IMG/VR virus record: IMGVR_UViG_3300022689_000474
Span: 88,053-152,052 of that record
Origin: a virus
Reading direction: 5' to 3' (one strand)
Length of the DNA: 64,000 bases
Shown here: positions 40,391 to 59,302 of the stretch, in pieces
Numbering within the stretch: the stretch's first letter is position 1
How the letters are laid out: the number at the start of each line of letters is the position of its first letter
The notes under the pieces: generated by a model
The model's input: the letters and a program-made list of their open reading frames with translations, nothing else
Told to the model about the DNA's origin: nothing
The model's database searches: none
Made by a program: the position numbers and the translations under genes

Positions 40391-40418
40391 CTTTATTAGA
40401 ACAATTATTTCATCTTTT

Positions 40419-40450
40419 CTCTACATAATATATGTAGAGCTTTTTTTATT
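40419..40450 (+). terminator. Intrinsic terminator ending the + strand operon
   Basis: CTCTACATA-ATA-TATGTAGAG followed by CTTTTTTT. Confidence 0.75.
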
Positions 40451-40591
40451 TATATAACTACTCTATCTTCTTCTCCGTATCTTTTCTACTTTATCTTATT
40501 TCATACCCCTTAAACACTTCAATACGTCTCTCTCCTTTAATCTTCTATTTAAACCTCTATTCTCTTTCCAAATAAACTTTCTGAACAATAA

Positions 40592-40749
40592 ATTCTTCTA
40601 TACTAAAAAATCTGGACCGGCCCTCAACTTTAGTTCTTCCTGATTCTTCTATACTAAAAATCTGGACCGGGTTCCAACTTTAGTTCTTCCTGATTCTTCC
40701 ATACCAAAAAATCTGGACCGGGGCCCCAACTTTAGTTCTTCCTGATTCC
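40592..40749. repeat. Three tandem 50-52-bp direct repeats (iteron-like)
   Basis: ATTCTTC(T/C)ATAC(T/C)A5-6TCTGGACCGG-N4-5-CAACTTTAGTTCTTCCTG at 40592, 40643 and 40693. Confidence 0.95.
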
Positions 40750-40862
40750 TTTCATCTAAAAGTTAATGTCGGAAAAGGGGCGCGTCCTCCTCCCCTTATA
40801 CGGACACTGATTTTCAAATCGATTCTCTAGGGTACTTGAGTGGCTTAAAACGACTAAAAAAA

Positions 40863-40909
40863 AGTTTCCGTACCCCCCTTTTTCATGAAATTAGGGGGGT
40901 ACGGAAACT
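40863..40909. repeat. Perfect 17-bp GC-rich inverted repeat with a 13-nt spacer
   Basis: AGTTTCCGTACCCCCCT (40863-40879) pairs with AGGGGGGTACGGAAACT (40893-40909). The spacer contains the palindrome TTTCATGAAA. Confidence 0.95.
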
Positions 40910-40952
40910 GATGAGTATTAGATGAAAATATAGTATCAATACAATCTTTATA

Positions 40953-41021
40953 TTGTTAGTAAAGAAAATTGTGTTATAATAAATATAAATACATAAATAA
41001 CATTTAAAATCTTTTAAATGT
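40953..41021 (+). promoter_or_regulatory. Sigma70-type promoter and downstream palindromic operator for the RHH-polB operon
   Basis: TTGTTA-16 bp-TATAAT with an extended TG (40953-40980), then the inverted repeat ACATTTAAAA-TC-TTTTAAATGT (41000-41021). Confidence 0.55.
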
Positions 41022-41089
41022 GAACAAATATACTAAATTAATATATAGTACAATAAAAGTAAAAGTAAAAGTAAAATAAAGTAAAAATA

Positions 41090-41254
41090 ATGGCGAATAA
41101 AAGAATCAATAGAGTGCAATGTTGTATCAGCTTAGCACCACATGTACTAGATAAATTAAATGATTATGCGGAGAAACTTTGTTACCCAAAATCAGTAATG
41201 GTAGATATGGCTTTAAGAGAATACTTTAAACAATTAGATGAAGAGGAGAAATGA
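41090..41254 (+). CDS. Ribbon-helix-helix (CopG/Arc-like) DNA-binding protein, 54 aa, absent from the ORF track
   Basis: MANKRINRVQCCISLAPHVLDKLNDYAEKLCYPKSVMVDMALREYFKQLDEEEK has the beta-strand, helix, turn, 'KS...AL.EY' pattern. Its TGA overlaps the polB ATG (ATGA). Confidence 0.8.
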   Translation: MANKRINRVQCCISLAPHVLDKLNDYAEKLCYPKSVMVDMALREYFKQLDEEEK

Positions 41255-43752
41255 AGAATATTACTAATAATATAACCACAATATCAATAGATGCAGAGTG
41301 GGTTAAAGATACCTTCTTAACAGTACAGATGGCATGTAGTGATGAAAAAGGTAGAATAGAAAAATATTATATATTCTGTGATAATGAAGAATATTTAGTT
41401 CAGTGTCCTAAAGAATTCAAAGGAGTTAATGTAGAGAAAGTATTTTATCCAATAGGATATATGGGTATATTAGATTACTTTGAATCATTGCCAAAACAAT
41501 TAGATTGTCTATTCTTTTATTCTCCTAGAGATATAGAAAGTTTCTTAGGACCTGAAGTATGGTCTTCTTTATTACTCGGAGGTAAAGTTGTTAAAAGGAG
41601 AAATCTTAATATCTCTCCATATTATCTAGAAGATAAAGAATGTACTTTAAGGTTTGTAGACTTATATGGGAGATTTAGTTGCTCCCTAGAAAAAGCTTAT
41701 AACCTAATGGGTATTGATACAAGTAGAGGTAAAGATTATATCTCTACACTTAATATAGATAAATCTAGAATGGATTTATTTATGAAAGAATATCCTTTGG
41801 AGTTCTTTGAATATTCTTTATCTGATTTAGGTCTACATGAATTAAGCATTAAATTATTAAATTTAATATCTGAATTATTAGATGAATGTTTCTCTATAGA
41901 AGATTTATATGAATCTATCAGAGATTATCCTGGTACTATAGGTAGATTGGTTTCTGATGTCTTCTTAAAGTTTATTAGTATACAATATCCTGATTTATTA
42001 CGGTCTTCTTGTCTTCTATCTATTACTCCTAATGATAGGAAAAGTAATAGACTTAATTCACTTATAAACTCTTTAATATCTGGTCAAGACCCATATCTTA
42101 TTTCTAAAAGAATAGAAAAATGTGGAGATGTTATTCATGGTTTGGGTATGTGCTCTATTCCTGCTTTCTTTAGCGGTCATTATGGTCTAAATGATACTAG
42201 TCCTTATGGAGCTATAGTTCAAGGAGGAAGGGCTATTAAGGAAGACTCTGAGAATACTATATATAAACATATATTAGATATAGACCTACAATCAGCATAT
42301 GGTACTTCTTTAAAGAAGTTTGATTATCCTATAGGTATTCCATCTATCTATAGTAATAGTAATCATTCATCTAAAAGGATTACATTGAAACAATTCTTAA
42401 ATCAATATAGTTCAGAATTAATAGATGGATTATATGTCATAGCGGTCTCAGGAAGACTTAAATATCATCAAGATCTTATCTTTTCTAAATACGGTCTTAG
42501 TTCACATAAGATAGGTTCTAAGATTTTGGGTAATTTATATGAAGAAGATGATGGTATTAATGGAAGATTAGGAGGTAAATTCTTACTTACATCTAAAGAG
42601 ATTAGATTGGGATTTATTACTTCTCATATGTTGGAGATAGTTAGAAATATGTCTTCTAATCAAGAATATAGAGATTGGATGGATCTTAAAGTAGATGTGG
42701 CTATTTATTATCCAAAGAGTCATGAAATGTCTATAGATAAGTGGGCTGATTATCACTCAGATATTTCTAATATAGGTGAATTAACTCCTCATAATGATAA
42801 TAGATCTAGATATTGGTGTAGATTTCCACTTAATAAATTTATAGATAATATTATAGAAAAAAGATTATATTATAAAGCTAAAAGAAATGAATCTCCTATA
42901 TTTGATGCTAAACAATCTTTACTTAAATTATTTATTAATACCCTTTATGGAGATTTAGCTTCCCCTTACTTTCTCTTTGGAAATACAGTAGTTTCTAATA
43001 ATATTACTAGTTCAGTTAGAGCTGGCTCTTGGATAATGAGTAAAGCTTTAGGAACTAAATTAACTGTTACTGATGGAGGTACTTATACCCCTTATTCTGT
43101 CCCTTTCTTTAGGAATCATCTTAAAACTTTTAGAAGACCGTCTTTATCTAAATTATATAAAAAGAATTCTAGATGGCAGCTCTCTGTAGAGTACAAATCA
43201 TTAATAGATGAAAGTATAGAATCTATATTAAGAAAAGAAAATGCTCAAGAACTATTAGATAATTTAGCTCTTGAACATATAAATAGATTCTGTAGTTTAT
43301 ATAATATATCTTTTCCTTTTAAGGTAGAACATAAACTAGAGAATTCAGGATCCCTTATGGTTACTAATCCTTATGGGAAAGTAGATTATATTATATATAC
43401 CTATTATAATACAGAAGTTATTAAAATTAGGGGTGTAGAATCATATAATTATGATAATCATCCTAAAGTAGAGTTCTTAAGGGCTTTAGCCCAAAATAGA
43501 CCTACTAAATTCTCTGCCAATCAATTGATTCATATTGTAGGTATTAATGAATATATCAAAGGAGTATATAGAAAGATGCCAGGACATGAAGTTATGATTG
43601 AATATATTTATAAACCAAATAGTAATGGGGGGTCTATTTATGAAGATTATCTATCTTATCTAAAAGCAGAAGAAGCTCATAAGAAAAGAATTAAAAGATA
43701 TGAATCTAAATGGAAAGGTTTAGAACTTAATATTATACCTCCTTTTAATTAA
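41251..43752 (+). CDS. polB: Family B DNA polymerase, piPolB (pipolin)-like
   Basis: ExoI IDAEW, ExoIII YSLSD, QGGR, motif A DIDLQSAYG, motif B KLFINTLYG, NNITSSVRA, atypical motif C TVTDG, and KIRG. Confidence 0.8.
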   Translation: MKNITNNITTISIDAEWVKDTFLTVQMACSDEKGRIEKYYIFCDNEEYLVQCPKEFKGVNVEKVFYPIGYMGILDYFESLPKQLDCLFFYSPRDIESFLGPEVWSSLLLGGKVVKRRNLNISPYYLEDKECTLRFVDLYGRFSCSLEKAYNLMGIDTSRGKDYISTLNIDKSRMDLFMKEYPLEFFEYSLSDLGLHELSIKLLNLISELLDECFSIEDLYESIRDYPGTIGRLVSDVFLKFISIQYPDLLRSSCLLSITPNDRKSNRLNSLINSLISGQDPYLISKRIEKCGDVIHGLGMCSIPAFFSGHYGLNDTSPYGAIVQGGRAIKEDSENTIYKHILDIDLQSAYGTSLKKFDYPIGIPSIYSNSNHSSKRITLKQFLNQYSSELIDGLYVIAVSGRLKYHQDLIFSKYGLSSHKIGSKILGNLYEEDDGINGRLGGKFLLTSKEIRLGFITSHMLEIVRNMSSNQEYRDWMDLKVDVAIYYPKSHEMSIDKWADYHSDISNIGELTPHNDNRSRYWCRFPLNKFIDNIIEKRLYYKAKRNESPIFDAKQSLLKLFINTLYGDLASPYFLFGNTVVSNNITSSVRAGSWIMSKALGTKLTVTDGGTYTPYSVPFFRNHLKTFRRPSLSKLYKKNSRWQLSVEYKSLIDESIESILRKENAQELLDNLALEHINRFCSLYNISFPFKVEHKLENSGSLMVTNPYGKVDYIIYTYYNTEVIKIRGVESYNYDNHPKVEFLRALAQNRPTKFSANQLIHIVGINEYIKGVYRKMPGHEVMIEYIYKPNSNGGSIYEDYLSYLKAEEAHKKRIKRYESKWKGLELNIIPPFN

Positions 43753-55683: not shown

Positions 55684-56978
55684 TATTCTGTTTTCACATT
55701 AGAAGGAAGATAAGTAGTGGGACTTCCATCTATAACTCCAGTTACTAATTTGAATATTAAATAACAAGGATCTTTAGGTTCTTTCATGTTTTCTATTTTA
55801 TATACATCTATCTGCATATTCGAATTCTTTAAAGAAGAATAAACTCTTGCAACCTTATCAGTCTCAGGTGCGAATAATGTAATTGGATTCCAATTTTCTT
55901 TATCTATCTGTAAAGTATTAAGAGGAATCTTACCAGCTTCTCTAGTATTTTCTCCTTTCATCTCTAAACAATTTTCTTCTATATTTAAATCCATAGTTAA
56001 TTCAGTTGTATTATCTTCTGGAGAACTATGAATTTTTACTACATTTATAAAGTCTTCTATTCTAAAACTAAAATATCCTAATCTAATGAATTTATTTCCT
56101 TTATTGAGTAAAAATCTATCTATTTGGTCATATTGTTGAGAAACAGTAGTATTATCTTTTACATATATTATTTCTCCACAACTAACTACTATTTTGAATA
56201 GATTATCTGTCTCTTCATCTTTATATAATTTAAATACTGAATCTACAAATTGAGGTTTTATAAAATCTCTAATATAAGGAGTAATCCAACATTTACTATT
56301 TTCTTTATGTACTTCAGTATTAAAATCTATAGAAACAACAATAGAAGACATATCTCCTTTAGCTATTAAACTTACTAGTCCAGAACTTTCTTTTGTTTTA
56401 ATACAAATAGGATTCCTCTTATCTAAGAAATAAATATTCCTTAAACCTTCACATAGAGGAGTCATTATTTCTTTATCTTCTTCTTCTTGTAATTTAATAA
56501 CAGAATCATTTAATATTAATTCCCATTTTCTACCTTGTTGAGTTAAACCGGACCTAACTATTCTTACATCTCCTCCATATATAGGTTTATTAATACTACC
56601 TAAAGACCCCATATTATATATAATACGACTATCTGTAGTCTTTATACTAAATACAGCTATATCATCTAATAAACTTTTATTTAATATCTTAAGATTCTCA
56701 GGTAAAACATAAACACTACCTTCTTCATCTATATCACACTCTATATATACTTTTATCTTATAAAAAAGATTATTAGAACTATTTTCTATAAATAACTTAC
56801 CTTTCTTAGGATTAGCAACTAAGGTCTCTTTTGGTAATTGACAACTTATTTTTATGGGTTCTTCTTTAAGACTTGAAGAGTTTTGACCTGCTATTATTTG
56901 ATTTAATAAGAATAAATACTTCTTTACATCTTTTATAGAAACTTTCATTTTATTTCCTTTTATATTTAATGTTTCCAA
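55683..56978 (-). CDS. Divergent sliding clamp (DnaN/beta-like)
   Basis: Directly follows polA. The N-terminus MKVSIKD..LLNQII...PIKI...KLFIE...I.CDIDEEGSVYVLPENL..L.KSL follows the DnaN domain-1 pattern, and the length suits three clamp domains. Confidence 0.55.
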   Translation of the reverse strand: METLNIKGNKMKVSIKDVKKYLFLLNQIIAGQNSSSLKEEPIKISCQLPKETLVANPKKGKLFIENSSNNLFYKIKVYIECDIDEEGSVYVLPENLKILNKSLLDDIAVFSIKTTDSRIIYNMGSLGSINKPIYGGDVRIVRSGLTQQGRKWELILNDSVIKLQEEEDKEIMTPLCEGLRNIYFLDKRNPICIKTKESSGLVSLIAKGDMSSIVVSIDFNTEVHKENSKCWITPYIRDFIKPQFVDSVFKLYKDEETDNLFKIVVSCGEIIYVKDNTTVSQQYDQIDRFLLNKGNKFIRLGYFSFRIEDFINVVKIHSSPEDNTTELTMDLNIEENCLEMKGENTREAGKIPLNTLQIDKENWNPITLFAPETDKVARVYSSLKNSNMQIDVYKIENMKEPKDPCYLIFKLVTGVIDGSPTTYLPSNVKTE

Positions 56979-59302
56979 TATGGTGCTAGTTCTCTAGATA
57001 CACCTACAATAATTTCATCTCTATTAACTCCCATCATTTCTATAATATCTCTTTCTGCATCTTCCATACATTTAACTATTTCATCTGCTATCTCTTTACT
57101 CTCATTACTAACTTCAAATATTGGTTTCATATAACCATTATCTACTTTAATATCTATTAATTTACAAGTACCTGGTATTTCACAATTATATTCATCATGT
57201 ACTACACTTAAACTCTTTATATCTTTTACTCTTTTTTTTATATATAAACATGCTAATTTAGTCATATCAGCAGCACTACCTTGTACTATTGCATTTACAG
57301 CTTTTCTTCCAGTAGATTCTGCATTATGAACACCTTTAGCATTTCTCTCCCAAATACTAATTCTTCTTCCAGAAGGAATTGTTACTATTTTTTCTACTTT
57401 ACCTCTCTCATGATTTGTCTTAAGCCATTTATTTAGATTTGGGAATCCTTTTAAATAATTATCTATTCTATCTTTAGCTTCTTCTACAGTAATATTAAAA
57501 TCTTGAGCAAATGATCTATCTGTCTTTCCATAAATAATACTAAAATTAACTATCTTTCCATGATGTCTTGGAACTACTCCATTACTATCTGGAGTCCTAG
57601 CAAACTTATTTAATTTATATAATGGAATTTCTTTAAGACTAGGAAATATAAATTTAGCTGCTTTTATATGTAAATCTGAATCAGGATTGACTACTTTCTC
57701 TTTAGTTTCAGGATTATATATATAAGGATTATCTCTCTTCTCTCTAAATGATTGAATCATTTCAGTCTCACTTGATAGATATGCTACTATTACTAACTCT
57801 TGAGAAGAATAATCAAAACTACCAAATACTCCTTCACTGGATGTAAATAAATTTCTTGGTGATACATTTATCTTATATCTTTTACTATTTTTATTTTCCC
57901 TTCCCATTATTTCTTCTGCTGATGCTTCTATCTCTATTATACTATTTGGTATATTTTGAGCATTTATCTTTGTCCTTTCGTCTTTAGAAGCACCTCTACC
58001 AGTACTAGTTCCTACTGGAAGAATAGTTAAATGTAATCTATTAGTCTTATTATCGACCATATTAATATATTTATTTATAAATTCATTTAACTTTGTAAAT
58101 TTCTTATAATTGATAAGAGATTTTATTAACTTAATTTTCTCTTCTATATTCTTTGTATACTGTTTTTGTATATATAAACTATTTTCTTTCTCTTCTGATT
58201 TATCTTTTATATTTACTTCATTATTGTTATGTTCATATAAATCTTCTATTTCTTCTTTCTTTTCATATAAATCTTGTATTTCTTTTAATACTTCTAATAA
58301 AACTTTTGATTCTGAATTAGTTATATATAAATTAGGGTCTATCTTCTTAAGGTTTTTATTTATCATTTTCACCATACCTATTGGATTATTAAAGGTGGTG
58401 ATTACTTGAGAAGGAATTACATATTCATCTTCAAATGGATCATATTTTACTGATACATTTAACCCTTTACACAGATCTAATAAACTTTCTCTTTTCTTCT
58501 TTTTTATAGTTTCCAATAATATCTCTTTTAGAGGATTATTTATTGGCCAACCATTAAACTTCATATCTGCCATTACAGATACACATTTCTGATCCAGTTC
58601 AAATGCCCACTTTTCTTTTATTAAATTACAACAAATATCTTCAATAACTATATATCCCTCTATTAATATTGATTTAAGGGGTTTATTAGTAAAGGGATTC
58701 AAGTATCCTCTAGGAGCACCTACATCTAATATAGAATATTCTAACTGTTCATCACTCAATACTTCTGGAGACCAATCAGATTTCTGTTGTGTTTTATCTA
58801 GATTGATATCAAATAGACTTCTTGCCATATCTGCTAAAGAAAGACCATTCTTTATACCTTCTTTCCAACCTTGAGAAACATATAAAGAACCTAGAGCAGT
58901 ATATGTATCATTTATATTTGAGAATTCTATATCATAAACTTTTCTCAATATGATATATTCATACATTGAATTATGACCTATAAGTTTTATTCTCTCATGA
59001 TGTAGATTCTCTAATAATTCTAATAATTCAATTATAATATCTTTAGAGATTTTATAAGTATCTATAATATAAGGACATTCCCAATCTAAACAGAATAATT
59101 GTATTAATCTAACTATTGCATTTGTATGAATTAAAGCACCCCCATCTAAAGTTTTATCTATAGGACTCGTTTCTATATCTATACCAAAATATGTAATCTT
59201 ATTATCTTTTATAGTTTTCCTAACTATGTCTTTTAAACTTGTTATATCTTCTTTATTTTCAATAATATATGTATCTGTCAGTTTGAAGTTTAATCTCTTC
59301 AT
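56966..59302 (-). CDS. polA: Family A DNA polymerase with 3'-5' exonuclease
   Basis: DIET, GHN, QKSDW..QLEYS..DV, TSTGR, NAQNIP, DYSSQE, RHHGKIVNFSIIYG (Phe at the E. coli 762 position), NAIVQGSAAD and VHDE. Confidence 0.95.
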   Translation of the reverse strand: MKRLNFKLTDTYIIENKEDITSLKDIVRKTIKDNKITYFGIDIETSPIDKTLDGGALIHTNAIVRLIQLFCLDWECPYIIDTYKISKDIIIELLELLENLHHERIKLIGHNSMYEYIILRKVYDIEFSNINDTYTALGSLYVSQGWKEGIKNGLSLADMARSLFDINLDKTQQKSDWSPEVLSDEQLEYSILDVGAPRGYLNPFTNKPLKSILIEGYIVIEDICCNLIKEKWAFELDQKCVSVMADMKFNGWPINNPLKEILLETIKKKKRESLLDLCKGLNVSVKYDPFEDEYVIPSQVITTFNNPIGMVKMINKNLKKIDPNLYITNSESKVLLEVLKEIQDLYEKKEEIEDLYEHNNNEVNIKDKSEEKENSLYIQKQYTKNIEEKIKLIKSLINYKKFTKLNEFINKYINMVDNKTNRLHLTILPVGTSTGRGASKDERTKINAQNIPNSIIEIEASAEEIMGRENKNSKRYKINVSPRNLFTSSEGVFGSFDYSSQELVIVAYLSSETEMIQSFREKRDNPYIYNPETKEKVVNPDSDLHIKAAKFIFPSLKEIPLYKLNKFARTPDSNGVVPRHHGKIVNFSIIYGKTDRSFAQDFNITVEEAKDRIDNYLKGFPNLNKWLKTNHERGKVEKIVTIPSGRRISIWERNAKGVHNAESTGRKAVNAIVQGSAADMTKLACLYIKKRVKDIKSLSVVHDEYNCEIPGTCKLIDIKVDNGYMKPIFEVSNESKEIADEIVKCMEDAERDIIEMMGVNRDEIIVGVSRELAPYWKH

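Follow-up and report, generated by a model that had tools for sequence, protein, structure and literature searches.

Why would a large phage that already encodes its own replisome carry, at the junction of its two gene arms, what resembles the replication module of a small plasmid? The question is raised by a 64,000-nucleotide stretch of viral DNA (hereafter the window), which represents the terminal 64 kb (positions 88,053 to 152,052) of the 152-kb IMG/VR virus record IMGVR_UViG_3300022689_000474 (CheckV completeness ~82%). Gene orientation switches from the + to the minus strand at 43.75 kb, and the + strand arm ends with two genes, coding for a CopG-like ribbon-helix-helix (RHH) protein and for an 833-aa family-B DNA polymerase (polB), respectively, which are preceded by the sole long intergenic stretch of the window (40391-41089), where a structured non-coding leader is found. 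We lean, if only gently, towards the view that this cassette is a plasmid-type replication module that was captured by a cyanophage-like virus and has long been resident in it. An earlier reading of the same DNA, referred to below as the original prediction, had listed a terminator, repeats, a GC-rich patch, a hairpin, a promoter, a dyad, the RHH gene and polB; all these parts are found where it placed them (Table 1), and the main ones stand above chance expectation, the promoter-like hit excepted.

By its sequence, the polymerase is a member of the PolB_SITDG clade and a relative of piPolB, the polymerase of pipolins, not a piPolB itself. The passages of Kazlauskas et al. (2020, PMC7544198) that deal with PolB_SITDG describe a cluster 'found in cyanobacteria and algae', in which the first Asp of motif C is replaced with a hydrophobic residue. 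The phage protein shares this feature, with LTVTDGG at motif C (residues 604-610) for a family consensus of QSITDGG, the plasmid homologues reading SITDG or TITDG. In an alignment of 36 sequences, T607, D608 and G609 are invariant, and the following residues are invariant or nearly so: (i) D14/E16 in ExoI and Y188/D192 in ExoIII; (ii) D343/D345 in motif A; (iii) K559..Y566G567 in motif B and D608 in motif C; (iv) K710..Y713. With these motifs intact, the polymerase looks active and exonuclease-proficient. ExoI is located at residue 14, as in phi29 polymerase, indicating that the protein has no N-terminal domain. An AlphaFold2 model built from the 36-sequence alignment (pLDDT 91.2, pTM 0.88) has archaeal PolB, E. 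coli Pol II, Pol epsilon and RB69 polymerase as its top Foldseek matches (E ~1e-9); in this model, a ~170-aa insertion (residues 357-527) sits between motif A and the fingers, where piPolB has its TPR1 insertion, of which it is no more than a candidate counterpart. The protein has no match in Pfam or NCBIfam, and phmmer with the single sequence finds none in the PDB.

How close is it to piPolB, to which the original prediction likened it? When the family profile was compared with single sequences, the score was best for piPolB, represented by the pSE-12228-03 polymerase (Prob 92.5%, E 4.7e-7), versus Prob 32% (E 4.8e-4) for E. coli Pol II and Prob 9% (E 3.7e-3) for phi29 polymerase. With hhalign, the match to a 19-sequence piPolB alignment begins at ExoI and reaches the fingers (469 columns; Prob 99.1%, E 8.3e-19). 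Both are exonuclease-proficient PolBs that have lost the first Asp of motif C (xTDG), both display a KS.M..L...P..F..YA..D block before ExoIII, and both occur on small circular plasmids and integrative elements as the only replication gene. In piPolB, motif C reads SxTTDG and KH-X8-KTRG stands in place of KxY (Redrejo-Rodriguez et al. 2017, PMC5695915). The altered motif C stressed by the original prediction is thus common to both proteins as regards the loss of the Asp, but not as regards its replacement, which is Val or Ile here (LTVTDG; family QSITDG) and Thr in piPolB (SVTTDG). The KH-X8-KTRG motif is not recovered, since EHK (693-695) lies 30 aa before KIRG (residues 725-728) and K710xxY713 is retained. 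In archaeal PolBs, KKRY...ITRG is found at the corresponding places. Likewise, an alignment of the profile with PDB entries puts K710VDY713 over KKKY of Pol alpha and K725IRG over the following 'VKG' strand, so that the KIRG that had been read as the KxRG motif of piPolB corresponds to the 'TRG/KG' strand found in ordinary PolBs. Finally, 41 aa separate the motif B Gly from the motif C Asp in the phage protein and in its pGM05 homologue, to be compared with 64 in the pSE-12228-03 piPolB, 67 in phi29 polymerase and 46 in E. coli Pol II, and hhalign shows a ~18-aa insertion in piPolB between motifs B and C. This short spacing indicates that the TPR2 insertion is absent from the phage protein. 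SITDG polymerases differ from the pipolin enzymes in lacking TPR2, in keeping K..Y and in forming a separate clade, both in our tree and in the CLANS clusters shown in the relevant passages of PMC7544198. The distance to phi29-type protein-primed PolBs is larger: the profile-sequence similarity is weak, the phage has no terminal-protein gene, TPR2 is missing, and the replicons that carry SITDG polymerases are plasmids of circular form and, here, a large phage.

The company kept by the homologues argues for a role in plasmid replication. A word-indexed search with the polymerase retrieved 11 metagenomic homologues, and a profile built from these, run on 1.84 billion cluster representatives, retrieved 1103 proteins at E <=0.001, of which 546 at E <=1e-30, revealing a large family, unnamed in that search, of proteins of ~800-1100 aa; a scan of metagenome contigs gave only 4 distant loci. 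With tblastn against 72,556 PLSDB plasmids, all 10 matches (E 4e-11 to 3e-32) are small non-mobilizable cyanobacterial plasmids. On three circular plasmids, pGM05 (5.1 kb), a Calothrix plasmid (5.5 kb) and pSTA7437.05 (5.9 kb), a 963-1051-aa homologue is the only large open reading frame (ORF) besides a TnpB, in keeping with the 'Rep slot' that the original prediction assigned to the polymerase. Further members are encoded in Nostoc, other cyanobacterial genomes and Planctomycetota (27-37% identity over <=790 residues for the Nostoc and Planctomycetota loci); no circular contig was found among the relatives by terminal overlap. Like the published family, the phage protein is homologous over its full length to the large ORFs that small cyanobacterial plasmids encode and to the copies on Nostoc chromosomes, and the distribution over cyanobacteria and Planctomycetota matches what the passages on this family report in PMC7544198 and in Lee et al. 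(2016, PMC4814812), the latter tracing the orf4-orf5 family of the Porphyra pulchra plasmid Pp6859 to cyanobacterial plasmids, red-algal plastids, Marchantia mitochondria and Zavarzinella. In a FastTree phylogeny rooted on piPolB as outgroup (FastTree support values only, with long branches flagged), the group containing the plasmid, Nostoc and phage proteins is monophyletic against piPolB, and the phage protein falls inside a clade with good support that consists of ten cassette proteins from metagenomes, the proteins of the small plasmids and those of Nostoc chromosomes forming clades of their own. The phage copy thus differs from the published PolB_SITDG members in belonging to a distinct, purely metagenomic sub-clade and in residing in a virus of at least 150 kb with its own PolA replisome. 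No homologue was found by tblastn in 50,697 GenBank phage records, and peptide-pattern scans of IMG/VR with the PolB profile and two flanking proteins detected no relatives; among those data, it is the first family member in a virus.

The second constant of the cassette is the small gene in front of polB. Taken alone, the RHH protein of the window stays under the Pfam RHH_3 cut-off (18 vs 21.6 bits), while its orthologues in L002, L003 and other loci (related loci are designated by L numbers) pass the RHH_3 or RHH_5 cut-offs. A profile of 8 orthologues matches CopG of pMV158 (1b01/2cpg; E 3e-6, residues 2-44) as well as the CopG-family protein 9kkd (E 5.5e-7), which assigns the protein to the RHH fold (strand, helix, helix; ~45-55 aa). 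The polB start overlaps the RHH stop by ATGA, with a GAGGAG ribosome-binding site inside the RHH gene. A similar arrangement, with a 49-75-aa ORF running 4-29 nt past the polB start, is present in every close relative with upstream DNA, i.e. L002, L003 (two cassettes), L004/5, L029, L030/31, L032-34 and L039; in L015, a more distant member, an RHH-like ORF lies upstream of polB, under the Pfam threshold. The RHH-polB pair is thus conserved in close relatives. No RHH gene was detected on the small cyanobacterial plasmids encoding a homologue. The layout announced by the original prediction, with an RHH gene of CopG type coupled by translation to that of a family-B polymerase and, in front of both, a leader rich in repeats and hairpins, is therefore borne out. 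The operon resembles copG-repB of pMV158 in that both begin with a small RHH repressor gene followed by a replication gene and both have direct repeats and a hairpin upstream of the promoter. There are differences, too: Rep is an HUH rolling-circle nuclease in pMV158 and a family-B polymerase here, the order and size of the repeats differ (here 3 x 50 nt), and no nick site is known here. Neither the CopG-like coupling nor the conserved leader described below is mentioned in the PolB_SITDG passages of PMC7544198 and PMC4814812.

Upstream of this operon, the leader consists of a series of elements, several of which are unusual for the window. The 50-nt array is its only long-period tandem repeat outside coding DNA, each repeat containing AAAAATCTGGACCGG..C(C/T)CAAC, and a shorter form of this motif is found once or twice in the leaders of relatives. 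The GC-rich stem-loop (motif 2) has an unexceptional fold energy (z = -1.1), and its pattern GGGG..CCCC..GGAC occurs once in the whole 152-kb genome. The C-run/G-run hairpin is the longest perfect hairpin in 64 kb, hairpins with arms of at least 15 being expected 0.03 times by first-order Markov simulation; as single-stranded DNA, it folds with -21.1 kcal/mol (z = -7.8). It has no U-tract on the + strand and is preceded by an A8 run, which amounts to a T8 run after the hairpin on the minus strand. A minus-strand antisense RNA ending at this T8 run was considered and rejected as a general feature, the T-run not being conserved in relatives. The promoter candidate is a consensus match only, promoter-like hits in the window not exceeding shuffle expectation; a TGTATAAT-type box is found between the hairpin and the RHH start in L029, L039 and L032. 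The dyad that follows is a candidate operator for the RHH protein.

Comparison with the same phage from another sample (L028) and with more distant relatives shows that part of this architecture is maintained. The two phage leaders are ~98% identical where aligned, with 3 copies of the 50-nt repeat in the window vs 2 in L028. In the hairpin, two base pairs differ by compensatory changes (TTTCCG/CGGAAA in the window, TTGGCG/CGCCAA in L028). Importantly, ordered leader blocks are common to the window, L002, L029 and L039, the PolBs of which are only ~57-59% identical: (i) an AAATC..GG..CTC block, which is the core of the 50-nt repeat of the window (AAATC..GG..C[CT][CT]C was found upstream of the L002 cassette by pattern search, with similar sequences by eye in L029 and L032); (ii) motif 2, found by pattern search upstream of RHH-polB in L002, L029 and L039, the stem-loop of the relatives reading GGGG..GCG..TCCT..CCCC-TATA-GGGACA and corresponding to the GC-rich patch of the original prediction; (iii) C-run/G-run hairpins with different, covarying outer stems in L002, L029 and L039, an equivalent being also present in L003. 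The linkage of hairpin and leader blocks to polB, on which the original prediction had staked its case, thus holds in L002, L029 and L039. Altogether, the leader blocks are conserved across unrelated contexts, and the compensatory changes show that the hairpin is under structural selection. A C-run hairpin is also found directly 3' of the polB stop in L030/L031, L041 and the Nostoc locus L013. As a minor difference between the two isolates, the (AAAAGT)n tract just before the RHH start varies by one 6-nt unit.

Is there anything in these leaders that points to replication? Those of the relatives contain a 17-mer, AACCATGCGGGTTT[CG]AG, as the leader block CAACCATGCGGGTTT(C/G)AG; in L030 and L013, it comes after the C-run hairpin that follows the polB stop. 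In IMG/VR, the 17-mer is found in 98 contigs (L042-L139) versus ~14 estimated by chance; they represent 86 distinct contexts of 31-66% GC. Its flanks are unrelated in sequence, with AAA conserved at -9 to -7, and by eye consist mostly of short iteron-like repeats. The genes most often found beside it are those for gpA-type terminases (14 loci), D5_N/DUF5906 primase-helicases (12), DUF927 plus Cch-HTH helicases (7), CHC2 DnaG zinc-finger proteins (7), a second terminase type (7) and integrases (5). The flanks do not pair with each other (0.26 paired vs 0.24 for permuted partners, no covariation), which indicates that the core is a sequence motif and not an extended hairpin. It is absent from Rfam, and a literature search for the string returned only unrelated primers. 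By its neighbourhood, the 17-mer ties the leaders of the relatives to replication origins and looks like a widespread origin-like core. Note that some copies have a tRNA half within 10-20 nt and thus sit at the end of an element.

The cassette is a genuine part of a phage with replication genes of its own. The junction is found with identical gene order on contigs of two other samples (L027 and L028), which excludes the chimeric assembly join that the original prediction had named as its possible undoing. The minus-strand arm encodes, in addition to PolA, a DnaG-like primase, Dda/PIF1-like and DEAD-box helicases and a clamp loader, indicating that the phage has the PolA replisome that had been claimed alongside polB. 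RecA/UvsX-like and ThyX-like proteins and a dUTPase are encoded on the same arm. The best matches of PolA are proteins of Microcoleus and Microcystis phages, with only 26-31% identity.

Putting these elements together, we picture a self-contained cassette of plasmid or mobile-element origin that would have settled for good in the genome of a large cyanophage-like virus. In this scheme, the leader (~500 nt, with its iteron-like repeats, GC stem-loop and C-run/G-run hairpin) would serve as origin, and the promoter would drive the CopG-like RHH gene and, by translational coupling, the SITDG polymerase. The RHH protein would repress its own operon and so set the dose of polymerase, as CopG does for RepB. 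The polymerase would start DNA synthesis at the leader used as origin, and would then either complete small circles, as presumed on the 5-kb cyanobacterial plasmids, or hand over to the PolA/clamp replisome. We infer the origin function of the leader, the autorepression by the RHH protein and the self-initiation of the polymerase from sequence features. In a bolder version, possible but in our view doubtful, SITDG enzymes would constitute a third 'all-in-one' replicase besides protein-primed PolB and piPolB, with a structured origin (GC stem-loop, 17-nt core and C-run hairpin) that they would recognise, no separate initiator and CopG-type copy control; the phage would have domesticated such a replicon as another means of starting or maintaining the replication of its 150-kb genome, the 17-nt core being the site for a widely conserved host factor.

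Several observations weigh against the captured replication module. (i) The 17-mer is absent from the window even at three mismatches, the aligned position reading ...CTCTAGGGTACTTGAG..., which weakens the idea of an autonomous replicon for the phage copy; as an origin, the phage leader may not function like those of its relatives. (ii) A second replicase is not obviously needed by a phage that encodes a primase and a full PolA replisome. (iii) TPR2, the source of processivity and strand displacement in phi29 polymerase and piPolB, is absent from the family. (iv) To our knowledge, no member of the PolB_SITDG clade has been studied biochemically, and we infer the replicase role of the clade from its members being the only large ORF on small plasmids. 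(v) Partition genes, which would accompany the replicon in a phage-plasmid and which the original prediction had suggested looking for elsewhere in the genome, were not found in the 152 kb of this ~82% complete record (no ParB_N or AAA_31/ParA match), and neither was an integrase. (vi) In L028, which encodes an identical RHH protein, the dyad keeps both arms around a 4-nt spacer (2 nt in the window), and no comparable dyad is found at the same place in the relatives other than L028. (vii) The C-run/G-run hairpins after polB may be plain terminators or insulators of these elements.

Could the cassette then be a selfish passenger, i.e. a compact, self-regulated element that does nothing for phage replication and whose leader is a decayed origin? 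We consider this unlikely. The mobility of the cassette certainly fits: the regions around the cassettes of L002-L005 have nothing but polB in common with the phage, indicating that the RHH-polB pair moves as a unit, and cassettes are found in unrelated contexts, twice within 7 kb (L003/L004), beside TnpB or beside a tyrosine integrase (L014). The loss of the 17-nt core from the phage leader and the presence of a complete replisome in the phage point in the same direction. However, polB displays the GC content (28%), GC at third codon positions (15%) and codon usage of the phage itself; it is fully ameliorated to phage composition and is not a recent insert. Between the window and L028, it shows 13 synonymous versus 7 non-synonymous codon changes, a pattern consistent with purifying selection between isolates, and all catalytic residues are kept. 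The compensatory changes in the hairpin likewise occurred inside the phage lineage. Finally, there is no sign of an integrative element around the cassette: no direct repeats of at least 9 nt were found between its edges, and PF00589 (tyrosine integrase) has no match in the 152 kb of the ~82% complete record. The phage copy thus lacks the recombinase and flanking att repeats of a pipolin, in agreement with the original prediction, which had seen neither integrase nor att sites.

Even less probable, to our mind, is that the polymerase is an accessory enzyme devoted to repair, bypass, repriming or the copying of modified or host-attacked DNA (e.g. in counter-defence), a potentially mutagenic enzyme that the RHH protein would keep low. 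Its nearest characterised relative by profile, piPolB, shows translesion activity (Redrejo-Rodriguez et al. 2017, PMC5695915), polB lies beside genes for a ThyX-like protein, dUTPase and recombination, and the lack of TPR2 is not what one expects of a highly processive stand-alone replicase. Against this, the 5-kb plasmids have no candidate replication gene other than the homologue, the motifs of the proofreading exonuclease are all in place, and a conserved non-coding leader travels with polB, which a pure repair enzyme would not need. Finally, that only the repressor-polymerase operon is real, the hairpins being ordinary intergenic terminators or insulators and the repeats products of neutral slippage, is very improbable: C-run/G-run hairpins do come straight after the polB stop in L030, L031, L041 and L013, a T8 run does follow the window hairpin on the minus strand, repeat number varies between isolates and the motif 2 fold is unexceptional, but sequence blocks, and not structure alone, are conserved upstream of ~57-59%-identical PolBs with unrelated flanks, the 17-mer of the relatives is shared with iteron-flanked primase-helicase loci, and the + strand hairpin has no U-tract.

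Until now, the PolB_SITDG clade has been no more than a point among others in maps of sequence similarity. Both the family and its association with cyanobacterial and red-algal plasmids are already published, only as sequence clusters; new are the presence of the family in a virus, the conserved RHH-polB operon, the leader with its conserved structure and the connection of this leader to an origin-like core that is widespread, together with the measured relationship to piPolB and the lack of TPR2. The locus and its relatives provide the clade with an operon partner, the CopG-like RHH protein, and with a cis-acting leader, both conserved, and lead to the hypothesis that SITDG polymerases are the replicases of small cyanobacterial and red-algal plasmids. 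As a relative of piPolB, the family directly offers candidates for new polymerases, either primer-independent or origin-specific, and it could yield minimal replicons for cyanobacterial vectors. With a full PolA replisome alongside, one may also ask what leads a large phage to maintain a second system of replication.

Table 1. Coordinates of the features of the RHH-polB locus, of the phage genome and of related loci (positions without prefix refer to the window)
Feature	Position	Strand	Evidence or description
Intrinsic-terminator-like hairpin	40419-40439	+	9-bp stem then T-run CTTTTTTTAT
Three ~50-nt direct repeats, iteron-like	40592-40757	+	period 50, 3.1 copies, 89% matches
Repeats in L028 (2 copies)	L028:1865-1980		
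GC-rich stem-loop, motif 2	~40768-40808	+	GGGG-CGCGTCCT-..CCCC-TTATA-CGGAC
Perfect 17-bp C-run/G-run hairpin, 13-nt loop	40863-40909	strand-neutral	hairpin search
Sigma-70-like promoter candidate, RHH-polB operon	40953-40980	+	TTGTTA-16-TG-TATAAT, consensus match 10/12
10-bp dyad, candidate RHH operator	41000-41021	strand-neutral	ACATTTAAAA-tc-TTTTAAATGT, fold z = -3.1
CopG-like RHH protein, 54 aa	41090-41254	+	Pfam RHH_3 E 0.0028
Family-B DNA polymerase, PolB_SITDG clade, 833 aa	41251-43752	+	ORF, profiles
ThyX-like protein, 495 aa	43749-45236	-	Thy1 domain confined to first 223 residues
PolA with proofreading domain	56966-59302	minus-strand arm	
Giant ORF, 2610 aa	2923-10755		
Giant ORF, 1294 aa	14233-18117		terminase large-subunit domain at C-terminus only
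Giant ORF, 5484 aa	20953-37407		
Giant ORF, 4838 aa	genome 16006-30522		
17-mer copies	L002:7740-7756, L029:1973-1989, L039:217-233, L030:4501-4517, L013:8785-8801		pattern search
RHH-polB cassettes of L003	L003:397-3073 and L003:7679-10448		
Tyrosine integrase of L014	L014:4302-5417		Arm DNA-binding domain
SITDG PolB of L014	L014:5587-8490		
TnpB (IS605 OrfB) beside SITDG polB	L029:33-1211, pSTA7437.05 (L009:2942-4159)		

Some further features of the phage and of the related loci deserve mention. The terminator-like hairpin closes the upstream + strand operon, after a gene for a 242-aa protein, and has the same sequence in L028, with a T-run one T shorter. At the other end of the cassette, the stop codon of the convergent ThyX-like gene overlaps that of polB by 4 nt, leaving no non-coding DNA downstream of polB. 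No tRNA was found in the window, and no Rfam family either in the window or in the leaders of the relatives. The phage also encodes several giant proteins, four of which are listed in Table 1; their size led us to consider a crAss-like affiliation. Among the relatives, the two paralogous RHH-polB cassettes 7 kb apart in L003/L004 encode polymerases sharing, in L003, 47% and 51% identity with the window protein; the two L003 polB genes are near-identical over their last 55 nt, and the first cassette is preceded by 152-nt tandem repeats, each with a C-run hairpin and a reverse-oriented variant of the 17-mer. TnpB adjoins SITDG polB in two unrelated contexts, L029 and pSTA7437.05. In L014, a Nostocaceae metagenome-assembled genome, the integrase gene lies directly upstream of that of the SITDG PolB; this pair in a cyanobacterial chromosome is a pipolin-like integrative arrangement in a separate polymerase clade.

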